A DNA stretch of 32,000 nt from Methylorubrum extorquens (GTDB lineage: Bacteria > Pseudomonadota > Alphaproteobacteria > Rhizobiales > Beijerinckiaceae): the NCBI GenBank assembly GCA_900234795.1, contig LT962688.1:3240001-3272000 (forward strand). The letters are read 5' to 3'. The stretch's first letter is position 1, and every line of letters starts with the position of its first letter. Below, one piece after another: positions 1 to 15,733 of the stretch. The position numbers were made by a program, and so were the translations under genes. The notes beneath the pieces were generated by a model. It had not been told where the DNA came from. It searched no databases and was given only the letters and a program-made list of their open reading frames with translations.

Positions 1-1
1 C

Positions 2-1408
2 GCCAAGCAGGCCGAACTGATCGGGCGGGGCGAGCGCCGGACGCTGGCCCGCTCGCGCTCCGTCCTCGACCTGCTCGCCGGGGTGCTCGAGCAATCGCGC
101 TTTTCCGCCGCCTGCACCGCCGCGGTGACGGACCTTGCCATCGCCTTTTCCTGCCAGCGCGCGGCAATCGGCTTCGTGCGGCGCGGCAGCACCCGGATCG
201 CGGCGATCTCGCACTCGGCGCAGTTCGGCCGCGAGATGAACCTCGTGCGCCGCCTCGGCGCCTGCATGAACGAGGCGATCGACCAGCGCAGCCTGATCCT
301 GTTCCCGCCGCCCGAGAACGAGGCCACCGTCACGACGGCGCATGCCGACCTCGCCCGCCTGCAATATGGCGGCCGAGTGCTGACCGTGCCGATGCTCGTC
401 GATGACCGCTTCGTCGGCGCCATCACCCTGGAGCGGCCCGCCGACCAGCCGTTCAGCCTCGAGATCGTCGAGCAGGTGAGCGCCTGCGCCGCCGCCATCG
501 GCCCGGTGCTGGAAGACAAGCGGCAGAACGACCGATGGCTGGTGCTGAAGGCCACCGACGCCGTGATGAACGGCGCGCGGCTGGTCTTTGGCCCGAACCA
601 TACCGGGCTCAAGCTCGGCCTCGCCGCGACGCTGGCCGTGGTCCTGGCGCTCTCGGTGATCAAGATCGATTACCGCGTGACTGCGGACGCCCGCGTCGAA
701 GGCCTCGTGCGCCGTTCCGTCGTCGCCTCCTACGACGGCTACCTGAAGACCGCCGGGCACCGCGCCGGCGACACGGTGCGCAAGGGCGATCTCCTCGCCG
801 CCCTGGAAGACCGCGATCTCGCCCTGGAGCGCCTGCGCTGGGTCACCGAGCGCCAGCAGCGCACCTACGAGTACGACAAGGCGCTCGCCACCCGGCAGCC
901 CGCCACGATCAACGTGGTGAAGAGCCAGATCGATCAGGCCGACGCGCAGATCCGCCTGCTCGACGAGCAGATCGCGCGCTCGAAATTCACCGCGCCCTTC
1001 GACGGCTTGATCGTCTCCGGCGACCTTTCGCAATCCATCGGCGGCGCCATCAGCCGCGGACAGGTGCTGTTCGAGATCGCTCCGCTCGACAGCTACCGCG
1101 TCGTCCTCAGCGTGGACGAGCGCCTGATCGCCGACCTGCGCGAGGGCCAGACCGGGCACGTGCTCGCGACCTCCCTGCCCGACCAGCCGCAAGTGCTGAC
1201 GATCCAGACCATCACCCCCGTGGCCGAGGCCAAGAACGGCCGCAACCTGTTCCGGGTCGAGGGCCGGATCGAGGACGGCGCCACCCGGCTGCGGCCGGGC
1301 ATGGAAGGCATCGCCAAGGTCGATGTCGACCGGCGGCTGCTCGCCTGGGTCTGGGCCCGGCCGATCGTCGATTGGGTGCACCTCGCCCTCTGGCACTGGT
1401 GGCCGTGA
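2..1408 (+). CDS. GAF domain / HlyD-family membrane fusion (periplasmic adaptor) protein, probably 5'-partial
   Basis: The frame is open from base 2 with no stop before the GTG at 83, so the gene likely starts upstream of the window. The N-terminal part looks like a GAF domain (VPMLVDDRFVGAITLERP...). A hydrophobic helix follows (LGLAATLAVVLALSVI). The rest is HlyD-like: a lipoyl-like hairpin (GDTVRKGDLLAALED), a coiled coil, then FTAPFDGLIV and a beta-barrel region. An 11-nt gap containing gagg precedes the next gene. Confidence 0.75.
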   Translation, partial: AKQAELIGRGERRTLARSRSVLDLLAGVLEQSRFSAACTAAVTDLAIAFSCQRAAIGFVRRGSTRIAAISHSAQFGREMNLVRRLGACMNEAIDQRSLILFPPPENEATVTTAHADLARLQYGGRVLTVPMLVDDRFVGAITLERPADQPFSLEIVEQVSACAAAIGPVLEDKRQNDRWLVLKATDAVMNGARLVFGPNHTGLKLGLAATLAVVLALSVIKIDYRVTADARVEGLVRRSVVASYDGYLKTAGHRAGDTVRKGDLLAALEDRDLALERLRWVTERQQRTYEYDKALATRQPATINVVKSQIDQADAQIRLLDEQIARSKFTAPFDGLIVSGDLSQSIGGAISRGQVLFEIAPLDSYRVVLSVDERLIADLREGQTGHVLATSLPDQPQVLTIQTITPVAEAKNGRNLFRVEGRIEDGATRLRPGMEGIAKVDVDRRLLAWVWARPIVDWVHLALWHWWP

Positions 1409-1419
1409 GGGGTTGAGGC

Positions 1420-3567
1420 ATGTCCCAGTCCCTGTTCAGCCAATCGTGGTACCGCGTCGCGGCCCTGCGCCCGCGCCTGCGCCGCCATGCCGAGATCCAC
1501 CGGCAGAGCTTTCGCGGCGAGGTCTGGTACGTCCTTCAGGATCACCAGACCGGGCGCTTCCACCGCCTCTCGCCCGCCGCCAACCTCATCCTGTGCATGA
1601 TGGACGGGCGCCGCACCCTGCAGGAGGTGTGGGAGGCGGCCGCGCGCCGCAACGAGGATGACCCGCCGACCCAGGACGACACGATCCGTCTGATCTCGCA
1701 GCTCCACGGCTCGGACCTGCTCCAGGGCGACCTGCCGCCCGATCTCGCCGAACTCGCCGAGCGCTCGGAATCGACCGCGCGCCGCACCCTGATCGCCCGG
1801 GTGAAGAACCCGCTGGCCCTGCGCTTCCCGCTGTTCGACCCCGATCCGTTGCTCGACCGGGTCGCGCCGTATTTCCGGCCGCTCTTCTCGGTCTGGGGGC
1901 TCGCGGTCTGGCTCGCGGTGGTGATTGCCGGCCTCGTCGTGGCCGGGTTGCACGCGGGCGAGCTGACCGGCGACGTCGCCGGTCAGATGCTCTCGGCGCA
2001 GAACGTCGCGCTGATGATGTGCCTCTACCCCGTCATCAAGGCCCTACACGAGGCCGGGCACGCCTGCGCCGCAAAAGCCTGGGGCGGCGAGGTGCACGAG
2101 GTCGGCGTGATGCTGCTCGTGCTGTTCCCGGCGCCCTACGTCGATGCCTCGACCTCCGCCGCCTTCCCCAGCAAGTGGCAGCGGATGATGGTGGCCGCCG
2201 CCGGCATCTTCGTCGAGCTGTCCCTGGCGGGCCTTGCCGCCATCATCTGGGCCACGGCCGAGCCCGGCCTCGTGCGGGCGGCAGCCTTCAACGTGATGTT
2301 GATCGGCAGCGTTTCGACGCTGCTGTTCAACGGCAACCCGCTGCTGCGCTTCGACGGCTACTACATCTTCGCCGACCTGATCGAGATCCCGAATCTCGGC
2401 TCGCGGGCCAATCGCTACGTCTTCTACCTGATCGAGCGCTACGCCCTGAAGATCGAGGGCGCGAAGAGTCCGGTGACGGCGGATGGCGAGCGGCCCTGGC
2501 TGTTCGTCTACGCGGTGGCCGCCTTCGTCTACCGCACCACCGTCTCGATCGCGATCGCGAGCTTCATCGCCACGCAGTACTTCGTGTTCGGCGTGCTGCT
2601 GGCCGGGCTCGCGCTGTTCGGCACCGTGGTCTCGCCCCTGGTGAAGGGGCTCAAGTTCATCCTCACCGATCCGAAGCTGAACCGGCGCCGGAGCCGGGCT
2701 GTCACCCTCACGAGCGCCGCCACCGGTGCGGTTCTGGCCCTGCTGTTCGTGGTACCCCTGCCCTACACGACGATGGCGCAGGGCGTCGTCTGGGCGCCGG
2801 ACGACACGCAGATCCGCACCAAGACCGACGGCATCCTGACCACGCTGCTGGTGGAGCCCGGCCGCGACGCGCAGGCCGGCGAGGCCCTGGCGACGCTCGA
2901 AGACCCGAGCCTCGACAGCCGCGTCGCGGTGCTGGAGGCGCAGCTCGCCGAACTGCGCCTGCGCTACGACGCCGCCCGGCTCGGCGACCGGGTGCAGGCG
3001 CAGATTCTGCAGGAGCAGATCGCCAGCACGCAGGAGATCCTGCGGGTCTACCGTGAGCGGCAGGCCGGCCTCATCGTGCGGGCATCCCAGGCCGGCCGGC
3101 TGATCGTGCCGGGGGCCGTCGATCTGCCGGGGCGGTATCTGCGCCGGGGCGAGCGCATCGGCTACGTGCTCACCACAGACGACCCCGTAGTGCGGGTCGT
3201 GGTGCCGCAGACGGATGTGGACCTGATCCGCAGCCGGACGCAGGGCGTCGCCGCGCGGCTGGCCGAGAAGCCGGAGGAAGTCCGCGCCGGCTCGATCCTG
3301 CGCGAGGTGCCAGGGGCGCAGCAGGAGATCCCGAGCCTCGCCCTCGCGACGCAGGGCGGCGGCACCATCGCCGTGGACGCCAGCAACCCGCAGAAGCCGG
3401 TGGCGCTTCAGAGCATCTTCGTCTTCGACGTCCAGCTCGCGGGCGGCCTCCCTTTCAACGTGCTCGGCGAGCGGGTCTATATCCGGTTCGATCACGGGGC
3501 GGAGCCGATCGCGTGGCGCGCGCTGCGCAGCCTGCGGCAGGTGTTCCTGAGCCAGTTCCGTGTCTGA
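1420..3567 (+). CDS. Three-part fusion: PqqD-like N-terminal domain, M50 (site-2 protease family) zinc metalloprotease membrane core, HlyD-like periplasmic C-terminal domain
   Basis: The HExxH motif HEAGH lies at nt 2047-2061 in a hydrophobic context (LHEAGHACAAKAWGGEVHEVGVMLLVLFPAPYVDAS). The downstream NGNPLLRFDGYY fits the M50 third-ligand motif. The N-terminal 50-100 aa (RFHRLSPAANLILCMMDGRRTLQEVW...LISQLHGSDLL) follow a PqqD-like pattern. The C-terminal 250 aa have an HlyD-like lipoyl and coiled-coil pattern (GEALATLEDPSLDSRVAVLEAQLAELRL). Confidence 0.8.
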   Translation: MSQSLFSQSWYRVAALRPRLRRHAEIHRQSFRGEVWYVLQDHQTGRFHRLSPAANLILCMMDGRRTLQEVWEAAARRNEDDPPTQDDTIRLISQLHGSDLLQGDLPPDLAELAERSESTARRTLIARVKNPLALRFPLFDPDPLLDRVAPYFRPLFSVWGLAVWLAVVIAGLVVAGLHAGELTGDVAGQMLSAQNVALMMCLYPVIKALHEAGHACAAKAWGGEVHEVGVMLLVLFPAPYVDASTSAAFPSKWQRMMVAAAGIFVELSLAGLAAIIWATAEPGLVRAAAFNVMLIGSVSTLLFNGNPLLRFDGYYIFADLIEIPNLGSRANRYVFYLIERYALKIEGAKSPVTADGERPWLFVYAVAAFVYRTTVSIAIASFIATQYFVFGVLLAGLALFGTVVSPLVKGLKFILTDPKLNRRRSRAVTLTSAATGAVLALLFVVPLPYTTMAQGVVWAPDDTQIRTKTDGILTTLLVEPGRDAQAGEALATLEDPSLDSRVAVLEAQLAELRLRYDAARLGDRVQAQILQEQIASTQEILRVYRERQAGLIVRASQAGRLIVPGAVDLPGRYLRRGERIGYVLTTDDPVVRVVVPQTDVDLIRSRTQGVAARLAEKPEEVRAGSILREVPGAQQEIPSLALATQGGGTIAVDASNPQKPVALQSIFVFDVQLAGGLPFNVLGERVYIRFDHGAEPIAWRALRSLRQVFLSQFRV

Positions 3568-5596
3568 CCCCCTCGCCCTCTCCGCCGGCTCGGCGCCCGG
3601 AGCCGCCTTCCGCGTGCCGACCGTGCGCGCCTATTCCGAGCGCAAGCCGCTGAAGGCGAGCCGGCTGGATCAGGCCGCTGCGCGGGTGATCGGCCGCGTG
3701 CGCGTCGGGCTCGCCGGCTGGGCGGCCCGCCGCTACGCGCGGATCGCCCGCGCCGCCCTGGCGCAGGCCGAGGACATCGCCGAGCTGTCCGAAGAGGCGC
3801 TGCAATTCCGCATTCGGGCGATCACGGGCGCTCTGCGCGCCCGGAAAACGTTTCGCGATGCCGACATCGCGGAGGCGTTCGCGCTGATCCGCGAGATGTC
3901 GGGGCGGGTGAAGGGGCAGCGCCATTACGGCGTGCAGATGATGGGTGCTGCCGCCATCCTCGACGGGCGCGTCGCCCAGATGGCCACCGGCGAGGGCAAG
4001 ACCCTCACGGCGACGCTGGCCGCCGGGGCCGCGGCGCTGGCCGGCCTTCCCGTCCACGTCGTCACGGTCAACGATTACCTCGCCGAGCGCGACGCCGAGG
4101 AGATGCGTCCGCTCTACGCCGCGCTGGGGCTCACCGTCGGCGTCATCAAGGAGAAGCAGGAGCAGCCGGAGCGGGCACAGGCCTATGGCTGCCACATCAC
4201 CTACTGTACCAACAAGGATCTCGCCTTCGACTACCTGCGCGACCGGATCGCGTTGGGCCAGCGCGCCAGCGACGTGCGCCTCAAGCTCGAGAGCTTGCAT
4301 GCGAGCGCGAGCCGGCTCGCCCAGCTCCGCCTGCGCGGCCTGCACTTCGCCATCGTCGACGAGGCCGACAGCGTGCTGATCGACGAGGCGCGCACGCCGC
4401 TCATCATCTCGGCCCCGGCCGGCTCGCAGTTCGGCACGGAGGTGCTCGCCCGCGCCATGGAAATCGCGGCGGAGTTGAAGAGCCCCGAGGATTACGGGAT
4501 CGAGGCGGCCGAGCACCGGATCATCCTCACCGAGGCCGGCCGCGAGCGGATCACGCGTCTCGCCACGAGCGACGGGCGCGGCGAGGCCTCGGCTTGGCGT
4601 GGGCGTGTCACCCGCGAGGGGCTGGTGCGCCAGGCGCTCTCGGCTCTGCACCTGTTCCACCGCGACGAGCACTACATCCTGCGCGACGGCAAGGTGGTGA
4701 TCGTCGATGCCAATACCGGCCGGGTGATGCCGGACCGGAGCTGGAGCGACGGCCTGCACCAGATGGTCGAGCACAAGGAGGGCTGCGACCTCTCCGGCGC
4801 CCGCTCGACGCTGGCCCGCATGACCTACCAGCGCTTCTTCCGCCGCTATCCCCGGCTCGCCGGCATGACCGGCACGACCCGCGGCGTCGCCGCCGAATTC
4901 TGGACGGTCTACCGCCTACCGGTGGTGCGCATCCCGACGCACCGGCCGGTGCAGCGGCGCCACCTCCCCGACGAGGTCATGCCCGACGAGGCGGCGAAAT
5001 GGCGGCGGGTGACGGCACGCATCGCCGAGCTCCATGCGAAGGGCTGCCCGGTTCTCGTCGGCACCCGCTCGGTGGCGGCCTCCGCGCGGGCGAGCACGCA
5101 TCTCACCGCAGCCGGGCTGCCGCACACGGTGCTCAGCGCCGCTCAGGACGGGCAGGAAGCGGCCATCGTGGCGCAGGCCGGGCAGTGCGGCCGCATCACG
5201 GTGGCGACGAACATGGCCGGGCGCGGCACCGACATCAAGCTCGGCCCCGGCGTGGCTGAACGCGGCGGCCTGCATGTCATCATGGTCGAGCGCCAGGACG
5301 CGCAGCGCATCGACGACCAGCTCGCCGGCCGCAGCGGACGCCAGGGCGAGCCCGGCTGTTTCCAGGCGATTCTTTCGCTCGACGATCCGCTGCTGGATAG
5401 CAGCCTCGTTAGCCGCGGGCTCGCCCGCCGCATCATGGCGCTGCTCGGCCCCGAGCGCGGCCGGGTCTTCGGCGCGCGCCTGCTGCGCCACGCGCAGTTG
5501 CGCACCGAGCGGCTGCACGGGCGCATGCGCGCCGACCTGCTGCATTCCGACCAGATGCAGGACCGTATTCTGGCTTTTGCCGGCCATGCCGAGTGA
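3560..5596 (+). CDS. SecA-like ATPase paralog (NBD1, reduced PPXD, NBD2) truncated within the first helix of the helical scaffold domain
   Basis: SecA signatures are present: Walker A MATGEGKTL (nt 3980-), VTVNDYLAERDAEEM, ITYCTNKDLAFDYLRDR, Walker B AIVDEADSVLIDEARTPLIIS, TNMAGRGTDIKLG and LAGRSGRQGEPG. At 678 aa it is well short of the roughly 900 aa expected for housekeeping SecA. The GTG start overlaps the stop of the upstream gene by 8 nt, which suggests translational coupling. Confidence 0.85.
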   Translation: MSDPLALSAGSAPGAAFRVPTVRAYSERKPLKASRLDQAAARVIGRVRVGLAGWAARRYARIARAALAQAEDIAELSEEALQFRIRAITGALRARKTFRDADIAEAFALIREMSGRVKGQRHYGVQMMGAAAILDGRVAQMATGEGKTLTATLAAGAAALAGLPVHVVTVNDYLAERDAEEMRPLYAALGLTVGVIKEKQEQPERAQAYGCHITYCTNKDLAFDYLRDRIALGQRASDVRLKLESLHASASRLAQLRLRGLHFAIVDEADSVLIDEARTPLIISAPAGSQFGTEVLARAMEIAAELKSPEDYGIEAAEHRIILTEAGRERITRLATSDGRGEASAWRGRVTREGLVRQALSALHLFHRDEHYILRDGKVVIVDANTGRVMPDRSWSDGLHQMVEHKEGCDLSGARSTLARMTYQRFFRRYPRLAGMTGTTRGVAAEFWTVYRLPVVRIPTHRPVQRRHLPDEVMPDEAAKWRRVTARIAELHAKGCPVLVGTRSVAASARASTHLTAAGLPHTVLSAAQDGQEAAIVAQAGQCGRITVATNMAGRGTDIKLGPGVAERGGLHVIMVERQDAQRIDDQLAGRSGRQGEPGCFQAILSLDDPLLDSSLVSRGLARRIMALLGPERGRVFGARLLRHAQLRTERLHGRMRADLLHSDQMQDRILAFAGHAE

Positions 5597-5609
5597 GGAC
5601 TGTTTTGCG

Positions 5610-6491
5610 ATGACCCTTCTGGCTGGAACGCGGCAAGCCCGGATCTGCGCGGCGCTCGCTGCCCTCTTCCTCTCCACCTGCGCGGCGCGCGCCCAGGACA
5701 CCCGCGTCGATTGCGTGGTGGAGCCGGCGCAGAAACTGAAGATCGGTTCGGCGACGCTCGGCATCCTCAAGAGCGTGCCGGTCAATCGCGGCGCGGCGGT
5801 CAAGGCCGGCGACATCATCGCCCGGCTCGATTCGAGCGTGGAAGAGGCCAACGTCGCCCTGTCGCGGGCGCAGGCAGAATCGACCGCCGGCATCGAGGCG
5901 CAGCAGACCCGCGTCGAACTTTACAAGCGCCGCCTCGAACGCCAGAACCAGCTCTCAAAGGGCATCGTCACCCAGGAGAAGCTCGATCAGGTCGAGGCCG
6001 ATTACGAGATCGGGAGGCGCGACCTCCAGACCGAGATCCTCAAGCACAAGCTCAACGGCATCGAACTCCAGCGCGCCGAGGCGCAGCTCGAATTGCGGAT
6101 GATCCGCAGCCCGATCCGCGGCATCGTCACCGAGCGGTTGATGTCGGCCGGCGAGTTCGTACGCCAGGACAGCGCGATCTTCACCCTGGTCCAGCTCGAT
6201 CCGCTCTACGTCGAGGCCTACCTGCCGGTCTCCCGCTGGAAAGAGATCGCCCTCGGGATGCCGGCCACCGTCGTGCTCGACCAGCCGATCGGCGGCGCCT
6301 ACGAGGCCAAGGTCAGCGTGGTCGATCAGGTGTTCGACGCGGCGAGCGGCACCTTCGGCGTGCGCCTCGAATTACCGAACCCGGACTTCAAGCTGCCCGG
6401 CGGCCAGCGCTGCAAGGTCGCCTTCCCGCTTCCCCCCGCCGGGCCGCTCGCGACCGCCCTGCCCCCCGACGCCAAGTTCGACGCTAAGTAG
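5610..6491 (+). CDS. HlyD / efflux RND-type periplasmic adaptor subunit with N-terminal signal or lipoprotein-like peptide
   Basis: The ATG at 5610 gives MTLLAGTRQARICAALAALFLSTCAARAQD, a signal peptide. This is followed by a lipoyl-like motif (AVKAGDIIARLDS), a coiled coil, IRSPIRGIVTE and a beta-barrel region. An alternative ATG at 5586 overlaps the secA-like stop. The upstream part of the tracked ORF (5034-5609) lies inside the secA-like gene and is rejected. Confidence 0.8.
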   Translation: MTLLAGTRQARICAALAALFLSTCAARAQDTRVDCVVEPAQKLKIGSATLGILKSVPVNRGAAVKAGDIIARLDSSVEEANVALSRAQAESTAGIEAQQTRVELYKRRLERQNQLSKGIVTQEKLDQVEADYEIGRRDLQTEILKHKLNGIELQRAEAQLELRMIRSPIRGIVTERLMSAGEFVRQDSAIFTLVQLDPLYVEAYLPVSRWKEIALGMPATVVLDQPIGGAYEAKVSVVDQVFDAASGTFGVRLELPNPDFKLPGGQRCKVAFPLPPAGPLATALPPDAKFDAK

Positions 6492-6560
6492 GCGGCGAAT
6501 CGGAGACCGGTTGCCCGGCGCGATGGACCTTTGCCCGTCATCGACGTATTGCGCTGCACG

Positions 6561-7220
6561 ATGGAGCGGACGGCGACACGGATGCTGACGGTGGGGCTCG
6601 CGGCGCTCGGCGCCGCCGTGCCACCCGCCGACGCGGGCAGCGCGCGGGCGCAAGCGGCGGGAGCCGCCGCCGAGACAAGCCGGGAGGCGCAGGATGGGTC
6701 CGAGGCGCGCGCCTTGATCGAAACGCTGAGCGCCCGCCTTCTCGCCGCGCCGAGCGCCACCGCCGTTCTCGAAGCGTGGTGCGCCGAGCGCGGGCTCAGC
6801 CCCGATCCGCGGATCGTCGCCGTGCGCGTCCCCGGCCCGGACAAGCTCCCCGGCGCAGCCCGGCGCGAGCGGCTGGCCGTGGGCCCGGACGAGCCGGTGC
6901 GCTACCGCCGGGTGCGGCTCACCTGCGGCACCCACGTCCTGTCCGAGGCCGACAACTGGTACGTTCCGAGCCGCCTGACGCCCGCGATGAACGCGGCGCT
7001 CGACGGCACGCAGGCCCCCTTCGGCCACGTCGTGCGCCCGCTCGGTCCGAGCCGGCGCAACCGGTCGCTGACGATGCTGTGGCGGCCCGAATCCGGCGGC
7101 CTGCCGGGGCCCGGCGAACCGCTGTTCTCAGTCGAGGCGGTGCTGACGGCCGGCGGCGTGCCGTTCTGCGAAGTCGCCGAGACTTATACCGGCGCCGTGC
7201 TCATTCAGGGCGAGCGCTGA
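6561..7220 (+). CDS. Secreted hypothetical protein, last gene of the operon
   Basis: The ATG at 6561 (or 6582) gives a signal-peptide-like N-terminus (MLTVGLAALGAAVPPADAGSARAQA). Third codon positions are GC-rich, consistent with real coding. I recognise no family with confidence. The segment LEAWCAERGL...YRRVRLTCGTHVLSEADNWYVP vaguely recalls chorismate-lyase/UTRA-fold proteins, which is weak inference. Confidence 0.55.
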   Translation: MERTATRMLTVGLAALGAAVPPADAGSARAQAAGAAAETSREAQDGSEARALIETLSARLLAAPSATAVLEAWCAERGLSPDPRIVAVRVPGPDKLPGAARRERLAVGPDEPVRYRRVRLTCGTHVLSEADNWYVPSRLTPAMNAALDGTQAPFGHVVRPLGPSRRNRSLTMLWRPESGGLPGPGEPLFSVEAVLTAGGVPFCEVAETYTGAVLIQGER

Positions 7221-7255
7221 CGCGACTCCCGGCCAGACCCCAGTTTGTCCCATCC

Positions 7256-7334
7256 GTCATCGCGAGCGAAGAGATCCAGGACCGCGACGGCTTCGGAGAG
7301 GTCGGCGCGCTGGACGGCTTCATCTCGCCGTGAC
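7256..7334. repeat. REP-like imperfect intergenic palindrome between convergent genes
   Basis: The left arm is gtcatcgcgagcgaagagatccag (7256-7279). The right arm is ctggacggcttcatctcgccgtgac (7310-7334). The reverse complement of the right arm shares the blocks gtca/gcgag/gaag/tccag with the left arm. From memory it resembles a Rhizobiales repeat family with a GTCATTGCGAGCGAAGCGAAGCAATCCAG core. Confidence 0.45.
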
Positions 7335-7352
7335 GAGATCGAGCCTCTTAGA

Positions 7353-8243
7353 TCAAAAATCCTGATCGGCCCGGCGGCCCTCGCGGGCAAGGCGCAGCAG
7401 GTTCTGGCCGTAGCTGGTCTTGGCGAACAGCTCGCCGCGCGCTTGCAACTGCTCGCGGCCGATGAAGCCTTGCAGGTAGGCAATCTCCTCCAGGCAGGCG
7501 ACCTGAAGCCCCTGCCGGCGCTGCAGCACCCGCACGAACTCGCCGGCCTCGAGCAGGCTGTCATGCGTGCCTGTGTCGAGCCACGCGTAGCCGCGGCTCA
7601 TCCGCTCGACATGGAGCTGGCCGCGTTCGAGATAGGCTTGGTTGACGGATGTGATCTCGAGTTCGCCCCGGTCCGAGGGCTTCACCTCCGCGGCGATGTC
7701 GAGAACCTGATTGTCGTAGAAGTACAGGCCCGTCACCGCCCAGGGGCTTTCGGGGGTCTTGGGCTTCTCCACCAGCCGCAAGGGCCGGCCGGACTCGTCG
7801 AGGGTGACGACGCCGTAGGCCTCCGGATGATCGACGTGGTAGGCAAACACCGTCGCCCCGCTCTTGCGGGTGCGCGCCTTGGCGAGCAGGTCGCTCATGC
7901 CGTTGCCGAAGAAAAGGTTGTCGCCGAGCACCAGTGCCACGTCGTCGCTGCCGACGAAGTCGCGGCCGATGATGAAGGCCTGGGCCAGCCCTTCGGGTCG
8001 CGGCTGCACCGCATAGGTGAAGGTGACGCCGAACTGCTCACCGGTGCCGAGCAGGCGCTGGTAGTTGCCGAGATGCTCCGGCGAGGAGATGACGAGGATC
8101 TCGCGGATGCCGGCGAGCATCAGCACCGAGATCGGATAGTAGATCATCGGCTTGTCGTAGACCGGCAGCAGCTGCTTGTTGATCGCCAGCGTGGCCGGAT
8201 GGAGCCTGGTGCCGGAGCCGCCGGCGAGCACGATGCCCTTCAT
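7353..8243 (-). CDS. rfbA: Glucose-1-phosphate thymidylyltransferase
   Basis: [55 protein letters not shown] is the canonical RmlA N-terminus. The ATG at 8243 follows agga and lies just after the rfbD stop. The GTG start in the ORF track (8252) is less likely. Confidence 0.95.
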
Positions 8244-8259
8244 ACGAAACACGTCCTGA

Positions 8260-9150
8260 TCAGTGGGAGCGAACCGGCCCGACCAGCCGGTCGAGGATGT
8301 CGTCGAGCGCCGGCTCCCAGGAGCGCGGCGCGAGGCCGTAGGCGTCGGTCAGGCTCTGGGTGGAGAGGCGCGAGTTCACAGGGCGCCGGGCCGGCGTCGG
8401 GTAGGCCGAACTCGGGATGCCCTCGATCGGCACCGAGCGCCCGCCGCGCCGGACCGACCCGGAGACGATCGCCCGGGCGAACTCGCACCACGTCGTCGCG
8501 CCGTCGTTGACGCAGTGGAAGGTGCCGGTGGGCGCAGCCTCGTCGCCGGCCAGCCGTAGGGCGATGGTGGCGAGCGCGCGCGCGAGGTCGGCGGCCGAGG
8601 TCGGGCAGCCGTGCTGGTCCTCGACAACGGTAAGCCGATCCCGCTCGTCCGCGAGCCGCAGCATCGTCTTGACGAAGTTGCCCCGGTGCGGGCTCACCAC
8701 CCAGGCAGTGCGCACGATGGCGTGGCGCGGATTGCCGGAGCGGACCGCCATCTCGCCGGCCGCCTTGCTGGCGCCGTAGACGCTCTGCGGGTTCACCGGC
8801 GCATCGGGGGCGTAGAAGCCTTCGCCCGACCCATCGAACACGTAGTCGGTCGAGACATGGACGAGCGGGATGGCCCGCCGCTTCGTCTCGGCCGCGAGGA
8901 TGGCCGGGGCCAGCGCGTTGAGGCGCCACGCGGCCGCGACCTCGCTCTCGGCCTTATCCACCGCAGTGTAGGCGGCCGTGTTGATCACCGCCGCATAGGT
9001 GCGCGCATCGAGCGCGGCGGCAATGGCGATCTCGTCGGTGATGTCGAGGTTCTGACGGTCGGGCGCGTGGACCCGCACGCCCTCGGGCCAGGGAAAGGCC
9101 TGAAGCTCCGTGCCGACCTGACCGGCGCCGCCGAGGATCAGGATGTCCAT
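8260..9150 (-). CDS. rfbD: dTDP-4-dehydrorhamnose reductase
   Basis: [16 protein letters not shown] is a Rossmann-type N-terminus, and [12 protein letters not shown] and YGASKAAGE are RmlD signatures. The ATG at 9150 lies 2 nt after the rfbB stop. Confidence 0.93.
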
Positions 9151-9152
9151 GT

Positions 9153-10211
9153 TCAGGCGCTCTTGGGCGCGAGGCCGAGGCGCTCGCCGGAATAGCGGCC
9201 CTCGCGGATCGGGCGCCACCACGCCTCGTTGTCGAGGTACCAGCGCACGGTTTCCGTCAGCGCCTCCTCGAACACCTTGGTCGGCCGCCAGCCGACCTCG
9301 GCTTCCGCCTTCGACGGGTCGATGGCGTAGCGGCGGTCATGGCCGGGCCGGTCGGCGACGAAGCTGATCAGGCGCTCGTGCGGGCCGTTCTCGGGCTTGA
9401 GTTGGTCGAAGGCGGCACAAAGCGCCTTCACCACGGCGAGGTTGTTCCGCACCGAGCGCCCGCCCAGCAGGTAGGTCTCGCCGAGCCGGCCGCGCTCCAG
9501 CACCGCGACGAGGCCGCGGGCATGGTCCTCGACATGGATCCAGTCGCGCTCGTTCAGGCCGTCGCCGTAGACTGGGAGCGGCTTGCCCTCCAGCGCCGCC
9601 AGGATCATCAGCGGGATCAGCTTCTCGGGGAAGTGGCGCGGGCCGTAATTGTTCGAGCAGTTCGTCACCAGAACCGGCAGGCCGTAGGTCTCGTGCCAGG
9701 CGCGGGCGAGATGGTCGGAGGCCGCTTTTGACGCCGAGTAGGGCGAGCGCGGATCGTAACGGCTCTCCTCAGTGAAGAAGGCGTCGGGCGGCAGCGAGCC
9801 GTAGACCTCGTCGGTCGAGACGTGGAGGAAGCGGAACGTCGCCTTGGCCTCGCGGTCGAGGCTTTCCCAATGGGTGCGGGCGCCGTCGAGCATGACCTGG
9901 GTGCCGATGACGTTGGTGCGCACGAAGGCACCCGGATCGGTGATCGAGCGATCGACATGGCTCTCGGCGGCCAGATGCATCACCGCCTCGGGCCTGAACT
10001 CGGCGTAGAGGGCGTGGACGCGGGCCGGATCGCAGATGTCGGCCTGTTCCAGGCGGTGGCGCGGGTCGTCCGCCAGCGGCTGCAGCGAGATCGGATTGGC
10101 GGCATAGGTCATGGCATCGAGGGTCAGCACCTCGTGGCCGAGATCCTGCACCAGATGCAGCACGAGCGCGGAGCCGATGAAGCCGCAGCCGCCCGTTACC
10201 AGAATGCGCAT
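9153..10211 (-). CDS. rfbB: dTDP-glucose 4,6-dehydratase
   Basis: MRILVTGGCGFIGSALV, HLAAESHVDRSI, FLHVSTDEVYG and YSASKAASDHL are the RmlB SDR signatures. The ATG is at 10211. Confidence 0.95.
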   Translation of the reverse strand: MRILVTGGCGFIGSALVLHLVQDLGHEVLTLDAMTYAANPISLQPLADDPRHRLEQADICDPARVHALYAEFRPEAVMHLAAESHVDRSITDPGAFVRTNVIGTQVMLDGARTHWESLDREAKATFRFLHVSTDEVYGSLPPDAFFTEESRYDPRSPYSASKAASDHLARAWHETYGLPVLVTNCSNNYGPRHFPEKLIPLMILAALEGKPLPVYGDGLNERDWIHVEDHARGLVAVLERGRLGETYLLGGRSVRNNLAVVKALCAAFDQLKPENGPHERLISFVADRPGHDRRYAIDPSKAEAEVGWRPTKVFEEALTETVRWYLDNEAWWRPIREGRYSGERLGLAPKSA

Positions 10212-10344
10212 CGATCTCAACTCCGTCCAATTCCTGCCAGCGGGGTCGGCATCCGCGGGATGGGCAAGGGCCACGCTCGGCCGCGCCTACGCCAACCTGA
10301 GGTCGGGCTCAATCCGCCCGACCGAACGATCTCGATACCTTGAC

Positions 10345-10896
10345 TCAGAACACCCGCCCGAGATCGGCCAGAAGCGGCGCCGCCTTGTCCTTGCCCGAGA
10401 GGATCGCATCCGCTTCGGCCACCGGCCATTCAATGCCGATCGCCGGATCGTTCCAGCGCAGGTTCCTGTCGTCGGCTGGGCTGTAATAGGCGTCCACCTT
10501 GTAGGCGACCATGGTGTCCGGCTCCAGGGTGCAGAAGCCATGGGCAAAGCCGGCGGGCACGAAGAGCTGTTCGCCGCCGGTCGCATCGAGCCGCACCGCG
10601 ACGTGGCGGCCGTAGGTCGGAGAGTCGGAGCGCAGGTCAACGGCGACATCGAGGATCGCGCCGGCGAGCACCCGGATCAGCTTGGCCTGGGCGTTGGGTG
10701 CGACTTGGAAGTGCAGGCCCCGGATCGTGCCGGCGGGCGCGGAGAAGGACTGGTTGTCCTGCACGAAGGCGTTGGCGATCCCGTGCTCGGACAGGATATC
10801 GGCCCGGTAGATCTCGGAGAACCAGCCGCGGTCGTCGCCGTGGCGCTTCGGGATCACCCGTTTGACCGCCGGAATCTCAGTATCGATGACCTGCAT
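10345..10896 (-). CDS. rfbC: dTDP-4-dehydrorhamnose 3,5-epimerase
   Basis: KRHGDDRGWFSEIY, GTIRGLHFQ and LFVPAGFAHGF are RmlC cupin motifs. This is the first gene of the minus-strand rfbCBDA operon. Confidence 0.95.
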   Translation of the reverse strand: MQVIDTEIPAVKRVIPKRHGDDRGWFSEIYRADILSEHGIANAFVQDNQSFSAPAGTIRGLHFQVAPNAQAKLIRVLAGAILDVAVDLRSDSPTYGRHVAVRLDATGGEQLFVPAGFAHGFCTLEPDTMVAYKVDAYYSPADDRNLRWNDPAIGIEWPVAEADAILSGKDKAAPLLADLGRVF

Positions 10897-12582: not shown

Positions 12583-12688
12583 GGGATGACATCCGGCTCA
12601 AGACATGGGGCCGTGTCGGCCCGTTTCAGCCGGAAGATCGTCTTGCGTCCCGCAGTGTCAAGGTTGCTCACGCGGCCTTGAGCGCCAG

Positions 12689-14506
12689 TCAGCCCGTCCC
12701 GCGCTCGGCCGCCTCCCGCAGGAGCGCCAACAGGTCGCAACCGGCGAACAGGAAGCCTCCGACGCCCGCTTGGCGCAGAGCCTCGGCCTCGGCGGGTTTG
12801 CCGGCGAGGTAGATGGTGCCGGCGCCGGCCGCCTTCAGCGCCTCGGCCGCGGGCACGGCCTCGGTCTGGTAGACGGTGTCGGACGAGCACAGGCAGGCGA
12901 TCCGCGCGCCCGACGCCTTGAAGGCATCGGCCAGGGCCTGCCTATCGGAGAAGCCGTCATTGCCGATGGCCTCGATGCCACCCGCGGCGAAGGCGTTGGC
13001 GGCGAAAGTCGAGCGGGCATTGTGGACCGCCACGGGACCGAGATTGGCCAGGAAGACCGCCGGGCGCTTGCCCGTCCGCTCGCGGACGGCGTCGGAGGCG
13101 TCGCGCAGGACCTCGTAGGGTTCGGCGAGGCGTTGCGACGGCAAGGCCCCCTCCGAGGAAGCGGCGGGGTTCGGCGCCACGTCGAGCACCGTCACCGGCT
13201 GCTCGGCGAGGAAGGGGAACTCGCTGGCGCCGGTCAGCGGCTCCTTGCGGGTCGCGACCGCCCGTGCCCGGGCCTGCGCCACCGCCGCGATCCGACCCGC
13301 GAAGGCGCCGGACTCCAGGCTCGCGGCGATCCCGCCCTCCCGCTCGATCTCCTGGAAGGCCGCCCAGGCCTTCTCGGTCAGTTCGGCGGTCAGCGCCTCG
13401 AAGCCGCCCGCGCCGGCCGCCGGATCGGAGACCTTGGCGAGGTTCGATTCCTCGATCAAAACGATCTGGCTGTTGCGCACCACCCTCCGGGCAAAGGGGT
13501 CGGGCAGACCAAGCGCCAGGGTGTAGGGCAGCGCGGTCACCGAATCCGCCCCGCCAAGGCCGGCGGAGGCCGAGGCCATGGTGGTGCGCAGGATGTTCAC
13601 GAAAGGATCGCGGCGGCTCATCATCCGCCACGCAGTCTCGGCCAGGACCCGCAGCGGCTTCGGCTCGAGGCCGCAGGCCTGCTCGACCCGAGCCCAGAGC
13701 CGCCGGATCGCGCGGAACTTGGCGATGGTCAGGAATTCGTCGGCATCCGCCACCAGCAGGACCGCGATCTGGTCGCGCGCGAGCGCGAGATCGTGGCCGC
13801 CGGCCTCCAGCGCCCGCAGATAGGCGACCGCCGTCGCGAGCACGGCAGCCAGTTCCTGCACCTCGCTCGCCCCCGCCTCGTGATAGGGCCGGGCATCGGC
13901 CAAGGCCGCGCGCCCATGGTATCCGGCGAAGGCGGTGACGGTCTCGGAGAGGCGTGCCTCCCACCCCTGGTCGAGCCGGCCGGTGGCGGCGCGGGTGCCG
14001 ATCGGGTCGAGACCGAGATCGAGGTCGAGCGCGGACGGGTCGTCGCCGCGACGATCGATCAGTTGCTTGAGAAGCGCCGCCGTCTCGAATCCGGCCGGGC
14101 CGGCATCGAGCCGCAGGGCGATGAGCGGCAGCATCACGCCCGTCAGCGCCGCATCCAGCGCATCGACGGACGGAAGTTCGAGGCCGAAGCCGCGGGCGGC
14201 ACGGGCGTCGCGATGGACGAGGACCAGCGCATCGGCACCGCCTTCGAGGTCGGCCAGCGCCTGTGCTCCGGCCTTCTCGGCATCGGGATGGTCGATGCGC
14301 TGCGCCAGACGCCACGGGCCGGGCGCCCGCACCGGCTGGGCCACCGCAGCGGCCGGCTCGTAGAAGGGCTCGATGCGCAGGCCGTCGGCGGTCTTCGACA
14401 CGAGACGCTTCTCGAAGTCCGCCCCCTTCAGCGCGGCTTCGACGGCTTGGCGCCAGCGCTCGCGGGTGGCGGGCTCGAACAACTCGGCGAGCGGACGATC
14501 TTCCAT
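12689..14506 (-). CDS. mcmB: Methylmalonyl-CoA mutase small (beta) subunit
   Basis: The N-terminus MEDRPLAELFEPATRERWRQAVEAALKGADFEKRLVSKTADGLRIEPFY is typical of the MCM small subunit. The TIM-barrel-like core lacks the catalytic-subunit motifs. The C-terminal flavodoxin-like domain (RPAVFLANLGP...ACLCSSD) lacks the DxHxxG cobalamin ligand motif. The ATG at 14506 is preferred over the upstream start in the track. Confidence 0.85.
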   Translation of the reverse strand: MEDRPLAELFEPATRERWRQAVEAALKGADFEKRLVSKTADGLRIEPFYEPAAAVAQPVRAPGPWRLAQRIDHPDAEKAGAQALADLEGGADALVLVHRDARAARGFGLELPSVDALDAALTGVMLPLIALRLDAGPAGFETAALLKQLIDRRGDDPSALDLDLGLDPIGTRAATGRLDQGWEARLSETVTAFAGYHGRAALADARPYHEAGASEVQELAAVLATAVAYLRALEAGGHDLALARDQIAVLLVADADEFLTIAKFRAIRRLWARVEQACGLEPKPLRVLAETAWRMMSRRDPFVNILRTTMASASAGLGGADSVTALPYTLALGLPDPFARRVVRNSQIVLIEESNLAKVSDPAAGAGGFEALTAELTEKAWAAFQEIEREGGIAASLESGAFAGRIAAVAQARARAVATRKEPLTGASEFPFLAEQPVTVLDVAPNPAASSEGALPSQRLAEPYEVLRDASDAVRERTGKRPAVFLANLGPVAVHNARSTFAANAFAAGGIEAIGNDGFSDRQALADAFKASGARIACLCSSDTVYQTEAVPAAEALKAAGAGTIYLAGKPAEAEALRQAGVGGFLFAGCDLLALLREAAERGTG

Positions 14507-14654
14507 CTTGGGCGAGACCTTGACGATTCGGCGTTTCCCGACCGCTTCTTCAAAGAGCGGCGACTTGGCCGCAAGCCCTCGCACGGGGCGCGGGCAGGCG
14601 ACAACCGACTTTAGTCCAGGTTGCCGCCTCCGCCTCGCTCAAAATCCTGAAGGC

Positions 14655-15506
14655 TCAGCTAAAAAGAATCAGTCCCGCGAAGCCGAGCGAGCCGACGATG
14701 ATGCGCCACCACGCGAACAGCCAGAAGCCGTGGCGGGAGACGTAGTCGAGCACCGTGCGCACCACGATCAAGGCCGAGATGAAGGCGGCGACGAAGCCGA
14801 TGACGATCAGCAGCGCGTCGTTGGAGGAGAGGTTCTTGTAGTTGTCGAGCAGGTCCTTGGCGAAGGCGCCGGCCATGGTCGGCATGGCGAGGTAGAACGA
14901 GAACTCGGTGGCCGAGCGCTTGCTCGCCCCCATCAGCATTGCGCCGACGATGGTGGCGCCGGAGCGCGACACGCCGGGGATCATCGCCACGCATTGGAAC
15001 AGGCCGATCTTGAGCGCCATCGGCAGGCTGAACTCGAACACGTCGGTCTTGCGGGGATGCTCGGTCGGACCGTCGTGCGTTCCATCATTCGGAGCCGCCT
15101 TCGGCTCGCCGACCGTGTCGTCGATGATGAGGAGCACGATGCCGCCGGCCACCAGCGTGGCGCAGACGATCCACGGGTTGAACAGATAGAGCTTGATGTA
15201 CTTGGAGAAGAGCCCGCCGACGATCGCCGCGGGCAGGAAGGCGATGAGGATCGCGAGCACGAAGCGGCGCGCCCGCGGATCGTTCGGCAGCGCGGTGGCG
15301 ATGCTCCACAGCCGGCCGAAATAGACGAACAGGATCGCCAGGATCGCGCCCAATTGGATCAGCACCTCGAAGGTGTTGTTGGGCGAGTGGAAGCCGATGA
15401 AGTGGCCGATGAGGAGCTGATGCCCGGTCGAGGAGACCGGGATGAACTCGGTGGCGCCTTCCACCACGGCGAGCACGAGCGCCTTCGCGATCAGGACGAG
15501 ATCCAT
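14655..15506 (-). CDS. uppP: Undecaprenyl-diphosphate phosphatase
   Basis: [19 protein letters not shown] and [18 protein letters not shown] are the two BacA/UppP signature motifs. The ATG is at 15506. Confidence 0.93.
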
Positions 15507-15733
15507 AAGCCTGCCATTCCCCACGCCGATGTGCCGGCGATTCAGGGCGCGGCAGACGACGGCGATGCGGCAGCTTTGCGGCGGTAGGGTTGACGGGCGG
15601 TTACCGGGTTGCGGCGGGTTTGTTAATGAGGTGGCAACGTTGGAGAAATAATCCTGGCGCGTCGCCCCAATTTCGCCGGTGCGACACGGTCTGCCCAGGG
15701 CTCTGCCTTCTTTACCGCTGAACCACGGCCTCG

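Follow-up and report, generated by a model that had tools for sequence, protein, structure and literature searches.

What does a membrane protein act upon when it carries, in one chain, a domain of the kind that recognizes peptide leaders, an intramembrane metalloprotease and a periplasmic adaptor? The question is raised by a gene at positions 1420 to 3567 of a 32,000-nucleotide stretch of Methylorubrum extorquens DNA (assembly GCA_900234795.1, contig LT962688.1, positions 3,240,001 to 3,272,000 of the forward strand), hereafter called the window. A reading made from the sequence alone had proposed that the encoded protein captures a cytoplasmic peptide, cleaves it and hands it over to an envelope-spanning conduit. 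Our analysis of genomic context and homology suggests, with a confidence slightly better than even, that this 715-amino-acid (aa) protein serves an apparatus dedicated to the export of giant LEPR-XLL proteins, as its inner-membrane receptor, leader peptidase and adaptor. Capture, cleavage and hand-over are still the best reading of its anatomy. The part that gives way is the short precursor typical of peptides that are made by ribosomes and modified after translation (RiPPs), as the substrate is probably a giant LEPR-XLL protein rather than a small peptide. The gene has the following features, where RRE stands for RiPP recognition element, MFP for membrane fusion protein, S2P for site-2 protease and TM for transmembrane.

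1420 to 3567, forward strand: PqqD/RRE, peptidase M50 and HlyD/MFP fusion protein, a 715-aa reading frame
1528 to 1722, forward strand: PqqD/RRE-like domain, predicted to be cytoplasmic, residues 37-101 (Pfam PF05402, AlphaFold2 model, 31 of 31 homologues)
1843 to 2751, forward strand: membrane core, residues 142-444, with seven predicted TM helices and a beta-hairpin at residues 227-242 (hydropathy, AlphaFold2 secondary structure, NCBIfam daptide_HExxH)
2047 to 2061, forward strand: HEAGH zinc-binding/catalytic motif, residues 210-214 (invariant H210, E211 and H214)
2329 to 2358, forward strand: NGNPLLRFDG, residues 304-313, second S2P motif of the form NxxPxxxxDG (N304 to D312 invariant)
2755 to 3555, forward strand: predicted periplasmic adaptor (MFP/HlyD) domain, residues 446-712 (Foldseek, Pfam HlyD_3)

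This is a genuine conserved gene, and a chance open reading frame (ORF) is ruled out, since homologues are abundant and constant in length. A word-index search with the fusion protein returned >7000 matches, the top 120 of which are nearly all 713-728 aa long, a few truncated fragments excepted. Exhaustive search of 50%-identity representatives yielded 12,976 clusters at E<=1e-3 and 4480 at E<=1e-30; the best 150 clusters are nearly all of ~715 aa and align from end to end. Judged against Pfam gathering cut-offs, the protein matches PqqD (PF05402) at residues 37-101 with 27.7 bits (cut-off 23.4), Peptidase_M50 (PF02163) at residues 206-292 with 29.9 bits (cut-off 27.2; a partial match to profile positions 9-116 of 221) and HlyD_3 at residues 569-626 with 23.6 bits (cut-off 22.2). 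When 31 homologues were scanned individually, M50 (E<=0.01) and PqqD were each recovered in 31 of 31 and HlyD_3 in 28, which bears out the earlier description of a single polypeptide with three domains.

The earlier placement of a PqqD-like part at residues 40-100 likewise agrees with both profile and structure. In the AlphaFold2 model of the fusion (mean pLDDT 80.6), residues 24-97 form an RRE-type winged helix, with three strands (24-31, 34-41 and 46-50) followed by three helices (52-60, 67-77 and 85-97) and a pLDDT of 79-89 over the block. Weak matches to the lasso, PQQ and ScmD PqqD models were also obtained in NCBIfam; a sequence search of the PDB with residues 1-142 found no RRE, and the same search with the membrane core returned nothing informative. 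The HEAGH motif, for which E211 had been singled out as the residue to mutate, lies inside the helix formed by residues 193-220 of the model, and H210, E211 and H214 do not vary across 31 aligned homologues that share 54-88% identity. In the same alignment N304 to D312 are invariant within FNGNPLLRFDG (residues 303-313), which we take, from knowledge of the M50 family, to be the S2P motif, with D312 as the presumed third zinc ligand. The fusion protein displays the sequence hallmarks of M50/site-2 proteases (HExxH in a TM helix, NxxPxxxxDG and the profile match), and proteolysis is predicted.

Seven long TM helices are modelled within residues 158-444, together with the beta-hairpin at 227-242, and the loop 408-426 that precedes the last of them contains five K/R against one D/E, in keeping with the positive-inside rule. 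Hydropathy, the odd number of helices and this K/R-rich loop fit the N-in, C-out arrangement that the sequence-only reading had anticipated, which would place the adaptor part in the periplasm. The modelled C-terminus has the alpha-hairpin/lipoyl/beta-barrel organization of an adaptor, its hairpin being made of helices 496-519 and 524-549. Foldseek aligned it over ~270 columns with MexA (1vf7, E 2.4e-10) and also with MacA, AcrA and ZneB, the E-values for MexA, MacA and AcrA ranging from 2e-10 to 1e-7. The best curated model in NCBIfam is the daptide intramembrane metalloprotease NF041824, matched by residues 18-404 over 363 of 379 model positions (E 1.5e-48). As the score, 165.8 bits, falls under the cut-off of 300, the fusion protein is classed by its sequence as a homologue of this equivalog and not as a member; no single curated family covered its whole length in the NCBIfam scan.

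What the sequence-only reading left out are the neighbours that are essential to any reading of this gene, namely a truncated SecA-like ATPase and two further HlyD-type adaptors. NBD1 and NBD2 denote the nucleotide-binding domains of SecA and PPXD its preprotein cross-linking domain.

2 to 1408, forward strand: GAF-TM-HlyD adaptor gene, 3' part, 469 codons (Pfam GAF, HlyD_3 and HlyD_D23)
3560 to 5596, forward strand: truncated SecA-like ATPase, 678 aa, with NBD1, PPXD and NBD2 only (Pfam, SecA alignment)
5610 to 6491, forward strand: small HlyD/RND-type adaptor, 293 aa from the ATG at 5610, with an N-terminal signal-like sequence (TIGR01730)

The 5' end of the GAF-TM-HlyD gene lies to the left of the window, and its full-length product in relatives has ~620-628 aa (for example in locus L001). 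The GTG from which the SecA-like gene is read precedes the end of the fusion gene, the two reading frames sharing 8 nt: the genes are translationally coupled in a tight operon. The SecA-like protein is readily recognized by Pfam (SecA_DEAD, E 1.6e-98; SecA_PP_bind, 6.4e-29; P-loop_SecA, 5.1e-47) and has retained a Walker A motif (GEGKT) together with a DEAD-like box. Its alignment to B. subtilis SecA covers residues 17-556 only (of ~780-840), and the protein ends ~50 residues past NBD2. As the alignment stops at residue 556, it has no counterpart of the wing domain, two-helix finger or C-terminal tail. It scores under every NCBIfam SecA/SecA2 equivalog cut-off, the best value being 590 against a required 814. 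The small adaptor matches TIGR01730 (RND_mfp) with 135 bits against a cut-off of 94.9.

The conservation of this gene set was surveyed in 63 non-redundant loci, with each gene counted over the loci long enough to judge it. The hosts include Methylobacterium, Methylorubrum, Bosea, Mesorhizobium, Aminobacter, Devosia, Paracoccus, Xanthobacteraceae, Methylosinus, Chromatiales, a Francisella-like metagenome-assembled genome (MAG), Burkholderiales, Myxococcota, an acidobacterial MAG and metagenome contigs. The order of the module is GAF/HlyD, fusion, truncated SecA-like ATPase, small HlyD, with a gene for a DUF3467 protein of ~100 aa upstream in many loci. GAF-HlyD precedes the fusion in 56/56 eligible loci; the SecA-like gene is present in 53/54, the small HlyD gene in 45/53, the DUF3467 gene in 45/55, and a gene for an OmpA-like barrel in 24/54. 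The clusters of L039, L064 (Methylosinus) and L069 (Thalassospira) include a TolC gene. No conserved inner-membrane transporter of the ATP-binding cassette (ABC), resistance-nodulation-division (RND) or major facilitator superfamily (MFS) type was found across the 63 loci, and an ABC exporter signature occurs in no ORF of any of them.

The other partner of the module is a giant gene. Scored as adjacency at the loci, a giant neighbour was found in nearly every lineage examined, across Alphaproteobacteria, Myxococcota and metagenome contigs, and its product has 2,665-15,428 aa where complete. At nine loci the giant ORF lies upstream on the same strand and runs into the module. In Mesorhizobium neociceri it encodes 10,068 aa and starts with MAFPFKSEG...RLIFDPLEPRLLLNADLNVNL; in the Myxococcota locus L056 it is divergent, encodes 2665 aa and starts with MMRRRR...VEALEPRILLSAD. 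Plasmids of Mesorhizobium ciceri and Alisedimentitalea carry giant genes for 10,518 and 8148 aa, respectively, while on a Methylosinus plasmid an 8847-aa gene is followed by DUF3467, HlyD, fusion, SecA-like, HlyD and TolC. The neighbour of the module on a Thalassospira plasmid had already been named 'LEPR-XLL domain-containing protein' by the Prokaryotic Genome Annotation Pipeline (PGAP), and the giant protein of L002 matches the NCBIfam model NF012209 ('LEPR-XLL domain') with 29.6 bits against a cut-off of 17. The association persists where the fusion homologue shares only 37-40% identity with the query (L059, L060, L062 and L063): the giant leaders read ...FEELEPRILLS in L059, ...FESLEPRLLLSAD in L060 and ...FEELEPRLLLSAD in L062, and the neighbour in L063 has 8110 aa. 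In all 23 of the 23 visible giant N-termini a basic stretch, 15-75 aa long, precedes [FV][DE]xLEPRxLL[SN]AD, and a signal-peptide-like hydrophobic core was not found in these leaders. The bodies that follow are diverse repeat proteins of LamG-like, cadherin/Ig-like, PKD-like and RTX-like types. A protein search with a 90-aa leader returned nine short fragments only. LEPR-like N-termini also abound in Planctomycetes.

A second motif, M-[AS]-[FY]-P-F, is shared by alphaproteobacterial leaders at the extreme N-terminus (L002, L017-L027, L047, L053, L057, L067, L068 and L073), the basic stretch, which we read as helix-prone, separating it from LEPR. Either motif could be the ligand of the RRE. In Alisedimentitalea scapharcae the start codon of the giant gene (L067, 600-700) has been called downstream of the LEPR leader, an annotation error.

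In the lineage of the window itself, the giant gene can be located through locus L073, which shares 96.8% nucleotide identity with window positions 1-9439 and whose fusion protein is identical at 706/715 positions. Its right-hand genes are those of the window, a 229-aa protein and then dTDP-rhamnose genes. To the left come DUF3467, a methyltransferase, a 219-aa protein, a Trp-halogenase-like protein and a 291-aa protein, then a radical SAM enzyme, an AraC regulator, SapC and a LEPR-XLL protein of 15,428 aa. The start of the giant gene is 11.6 kb upstream of the fusion gene, a position that corresponds to ~10.2 kb left of window base 1. Locus L068 (86% nucleotide identity) has the same gene order and a giant of 8099 aa. 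Shared synteny of the rml (dTDP-rhamnose) genes helped to identify L068 and L073 as relatives of the window. The sequence-only reading had left the substrate to be sought upstream, elsewhere or in the secreted protein downstream; the giant gene lies upstream in this lineage, and the downstream protein (6531 to 7220) is unlikely. A cargo gene within the window was considered and rejected, as a LEPR-type motif occurs in no ORF of the window, the rest of which consists of housekeeping genes.

How might such an apparatus work? RRE domains bind the leaders of RiPP precursors. By analogy with RRE-dependent leader peptidases, the cytoplasmic PqqD/RRE domain would bind the giant protein's leader while the chain is nascent or unfolded, and the M50 site, placed in the cytoplasmic half of the membrane, would remove this leader at or near the LEPR motif. 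The SecA-like motor, which keeps the ATPase core and preprotein clamp but has lost the SecY-engaging two-helix finger and wing, could dock on the membrane complex of the M50 and GAF-HlyD proteins and thread the chain from its N- to its C-terminus. The three adaptor domains (of the fusion, GAF-HlyD and small HlyD proteins) may then form a periplasmic tunnel to an outer-membrane exit, which could be TolC in the Methylosinus and Thalassospira clusters or the OmpA-like barrel in 24 loci. The inner membrane might be crossed through the complex itself or through SecYEG.

It is tempting to go one step further and to suggest that the module constitutes an unrecognized envelope-spanning secretion pathway of its own for giant surface proteins (up to >15,000 aa), in which a SecA-derived motor replaces the ABC transporter. 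We hold this broader proposal, which is drawn from the composition of the loci, to have somewhat less than even chances. Its parts would be the RRE-S2P-adaptor fusion, the GAF-adaptor, the truncated SecA-type ATPase, the third adaptor and, in some lineages, TolC or the OmpA-like barrel. All these parts are of known kinds. It is their combination that departs from type I secretion: a single chain unites RRE, site-2 protease and adaptor, the truncated SecA is a protein by itself, and the signal of the giant cargo is N-terminal.

Several observations weigh against a dedicated export apparatus. No inner-membrane channel is evident in the module, and we know of no case in which an S2P core serves as a protein-conducting pore. 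Several giant neighbours contain RTX-like repeats, so a type I system encoded elsewhere is possible. The Pfam score for HlyD_3 is marginal, the fold match being nonetheless strong. The loci surveyed are mostly alphaproteobacterial and not phylogenetically independent. Two variants (L061 and the Thalassospira locus L069) have no SecA-like gene nearby, and the motor is not obligatory for every member of the family. In L069 (Thalassospira marina pCSC3H3) the LEPR-XLL giant, DUF3467, two adaptors and TolC are kept; in L061 (P0414) neither a giant gene nor a SecA-like gene is found nearby.

Some of these observations would also suit an alternative in which a distant type I system secretes the giant adhesin and the module only clips its leader and controls processing or retention in the manner of LapG/LapD, with GAF as the sensor. 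LapG/LapD regulates the release or anchoring of LapA, LapG acting in the periplasm. The RTX-like calcium-binding repeats lie near the C-terminus of some giant neighbours, the partner adaptor carries a GAF sensor domain, and the two variants manage without a SecA-like gene. We nevertheless regard this alternative as unlikely: three adaptor-type proteins, TolC in the cluster of several lineages and a SecA-type ATPase in 53/54 loci amount to transport hardware rather than to a protease with a regulatory role, no ABC exporter was seen next to any giant gene, and the M50 site faces the cytoplasmic side in contrast to periplasmic LapG. A more conventional two-step route, which we would rank slightly lower still, has the SecA-like protein acting as a SecA2-type motor on SecYEG and the M50 domain clearing the leader as a signal-peptide peptidase, with the adaptors and TolC completing the passage. 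There are precedents for both steps, as SecA2 proteins are accessory motors and MacAB-TolC carries a periplasmic intermediate, enterotoxin STII, across the outer membrane. Retention of all motor and clamp domains by the SecA-like protein would agree with such a route, as would the lack of a channel-forming inner-membrane component in the module. The same protein, however, is devoid of the SecY-engaging wing and two-helix finger, a hydrophobic core of the signal-peptide type is absent from the leaders, and a periplasmic intermediate of 8,000-15,000 aa seems improbable.

The remaining alternatives take the substrate to be small. If the module were a RiPP-type system, the fusion would mature and export a small modified peptide made by an enzyme operon that is often found divergently upstream, and the giant gene would be a bystander. 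This would agree with the daptide leader peptidase as the closest curated model, and radical SAM, O-methyltransferase, Trp-halogenase-like and kinase-like genes are indeed divergent upstream in about 33 (32-34) of ~52 loci and inside the operon in L028. Yet the daptide model is matched far under its cut-off, many lineages that retain both module and giant neighbour have no enzyme operon, and a SecA-type motor with a preprotein clamp is suited to long polypeptides. Moreover, all-against-all clustering revealed no conserved small ORF in the module among ORFs of at least 50 aa (shorter ones were not screened), in line with the earlier remark that no precursor is apparent in the operon; clustering of the left-over ORFs at the same length limit yielded the giant gene, an AraC regulator and the OmpA-like barrel and nothing else. 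We consider a RiPP-type system improbable, and still less credence can be given to the DUF3467 protein as the substrate bound by the RRE domain, which would be very surprising. Its gene is directly upstream of the module, and the protein has a variable N-terminus of ~25 aa ahead of a very strongly conserved 75-aa body; but it is absent in 10 of 55 eligible loci that keep module and giant neighbour, its sequence looks like a folded domain of three strands and a helix, and Pfam lists it as a separate family whose definition does not depend on the module.

Export of giant LEPR-XLL proteins remains the reading that we favour, and it can be set against the closest known systems. In the daptide pathway, an RRE is fused N-terminally to the intramembrane site-2 protease MpaP, to which RRE-dependent removal of the leader has been assigned (10.1101/2023.03.08.531785). 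Like MpaP (NF041824), the fusion protein has an N-terminal PqqD/RRE domain followed by an M50 membrane core. Unlike MpaP, it has one more TM helix, bears a periplasmic adaptor of 270 aa, is found in Gram-negative hosts and has a presumed substrate of thousands of residues. The daptide leader motif ELExMEAP bears only a loose hydrophobic-Glu-(x)-Pro resemblance to LEPR, which is not a test of relationship. None of the daptide genes (DUF-RRE protein, oxidative decarboxylase, aminotransferase, short precursors) was found in L001, L002, L059-L063, L068 or L073. Another M50 protease, EpeP, is thought to cleave and export its own peptide (PMC10885120), and may serve by analogy as a small-scale precedent for cleavage combined with export. 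The epipeptide proteases YydH/EpeP/LiaK (NF058609) match the fusion weakly but significantly (E 1.6e-9), with 37.8 bits against a cut-off of 225; they have no adaptor domain, act on small peptides and belong to Firmicutes.

With HlyB-HlyD-TolC, MacAB-TolC and MexAB-OprM the module shares the alpha-hairpin adaptor fold, TolC in some lineages, adhesin-like giant cargo and some RTX-like repeats. It differs from type I and tripartite efflux systems in having no ABC, RND or MFS transporter, a SecA-type ATPase and three adaptors, one of them fused to a protease, and from type I cargo in that the conserved signal is N-terminal. Membership of a classical type I system was rejected, as no ABC exporter is present. 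Likewise, the SecA-like protein resembles SecA and SecA2 in its NBD1, preprotein cross-linking domain, NBD2, Walker A motif and DEAD-like box, but not in the wing, two-helix finger and C-terminal tail, and neither SecY2 nor Asp genes accompany it. In Omnitrophota and Actinobacteria, SecA DEAD and preprotein-binding domains that lack scaffold and wing have been described within giant proteins, and a role in export has been proposed for these (West-Roberts et al., 10.1101/2023.11.21.568195). There, the SecA module is inside the giant protein, whereas here it is a separate protein of 660-680 aa in an operon with M50/HlyD; LEPR leader, M50 and HlyD have 0 occurrences in that paper. By analogy, these truncated SecA modules hint that SecA-derived motors may serve the export of giant proteins.

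The architecture of the fusion is not itself new, as it is already in databases, annotated piecemeal. Its members are variously called 'PqqD family peptide modification chaperone', 'peptidase M50', 'HlyD family efflux transporter periplasmic adaptor subunit', 'biotin/lipoyl-binding protein', 'putative peptide zinc metalloprotease protein' (Joint Genome Institute, JGI) or 'hypothetical protein'. The SecA-like gene of Methylosinus sp. C49 (L064, 22222-24138) has been erroneously named 'prepilin peptidase'. In the literature that we searched, no description of the PqqD+M50+HlyD combination was found, nor any paper on a role for the LEPR-XLL leader or on the export module itself; searches on SecA+PqqD, on PqqD+HlyD and of the RRE-Finder paper gave nothing on the architecture of the fusion, and DUF3467, LEPR-XLL and DUF4347 are mentioned there in passing only.

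To our knowledge, the export of proteins of 5,000-15,000 residues is understood only for type I systems (ABC/HlyD/TolC), with C-terminal signals. If our proposal is correct, the module would be a second route for giant export, assembled from parts known from three fields: RiPP leader recognition, site-2 proteases and SecA motors. It would give a function to the widespread N-terminal LEPR-XLL motif, used by NCBI as a label only, would link it to the SecA-like domains built into Omnitrophota giant proteins, and would explain the inconsistent names of the fusion family. For genome miners, RRE hits of the fusion type would not mark small-peptide clusters. The question would be open to study in tractable hosts such as Methylorubrum, Methylobacterium and Mesorhizobium.

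Around the module, DUF3467, SapC and the radical-SAM/methyltransferase/halogenase-like genes are lineage-restricted accessories. The DUF3467 gene heads the operon in relatives (L001, 7710-8012; L002, 7746-8066). In 28 sequences (alignment A2), the 75-aa body of its product has 42 invariant columns and is far more conserved than the enzymes encoded beside it. AlphaFold2 failed to fold the monomer (pLDDT 55), so that the protein may be an obligate oligomer or a partner-bound subunit. Sequence and profile searches of the PDB gave no match for it, and the idea of a SecB-like chaperone found no support, the profile-profile comparison with the SecB sequence giving a probability of 0.04. The OmpA-like barrel gene (~430 aa; L002, 6178-7479, and 23 other loci) is directly upstream of DUF3467 in Mesorhizobium, Aminobacter, Devosia, Paracoccus and Xanthobacteraceae and is absent from this position in Methylobacterium and Methylorubrum; its product is a candidate outer-membrane partner.

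The divergent operon consists of genes for an O-methyltransferase, a kinase-like ATPase, a Trp-halogenase-like protein, a 290-aa protein and a radical SAM enzyme. It is missing, the module being kept, in L030, L031, L033, L037, L039, L042, L044, L046, L056 and L059-L065. In a Hyphomicrobiales MAG (L028, 12073-20639), the five genes of this set stand within the export operon, with the small HlyD gene on one side and the SecA-like gene on the other, an insertion that appears to tie the enzymes functionally to the module. A SapC-family gene adjoins the giant gene in 21/48 eligible loci overall; it recurs in L060, L063, L065/L067, L068 and L073, and thereby also in distant lineages in which fusion identity is only 37-40%. 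Clustering of the left-over ORFs placed a giant gene beyond SapC in 14/14 loci with room for it. SapC is known from the S-layer secretion locus of Campylobacter fetus, whose sapCDEF genes (S-layer type I secretion) have a SapC-family gene in common with the giant loci. Elsewhere, neighbourhoods with SapC and Trp-halogenase have been linked to TonB receptors, and a siderophore-like product has been proposed (PMC2938197). Trp-halogenase-like genes co-occur with SapC here as well, but in our loci SapC has as partners a giant protein of the LEPR-XLL type together with the export module.

The rest of the window lies downstream of the small HlyD gene.

6531 to 7220, forward strand: 229-aa ORF with a signal-like N-terminus, directly 3' of the small HlyD gene (no Pfam or NCBIfam match)
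7353 to 10896, reverse strand: four ORFs immediately downstream (collinear genes in L068 and L073)
12605 to 14614, forward strand: long ORF, 669 aa (no Pfam match at E<=1e-5)
14373 to 15587, forward strand: long ORF, 404 aa (no Pfam match at E<=1e-5)

The 229-aa protein was rejected as a substrate since it has no family match, lies outside the conserved module and is limited in its conservation to Methylorubrum and close relatives (L003, L006, L008, L011, L040, L050, L068 and L073). The two long forward ORFs may be spurious or really encoded on the opposite strand, given a GC content of 70%. The counterparts of 7353 to 10896 in L068 and L073 contain domains of the NTP_transferase, RmlD_sub_bind and epimerase/dehydratase types. 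This suggests a dTDP-rhamnose (rml) cluster; the names rmlA, rmlD, rmlB and rmlC for the single genes are our own reading. Besides these rml genes, the remaining genes of the window, all unrelated to the module, encode QueG, a methyl-accepting chemotaxis protein (MCP), RNase R, glutamine synthetase and glutaminase.

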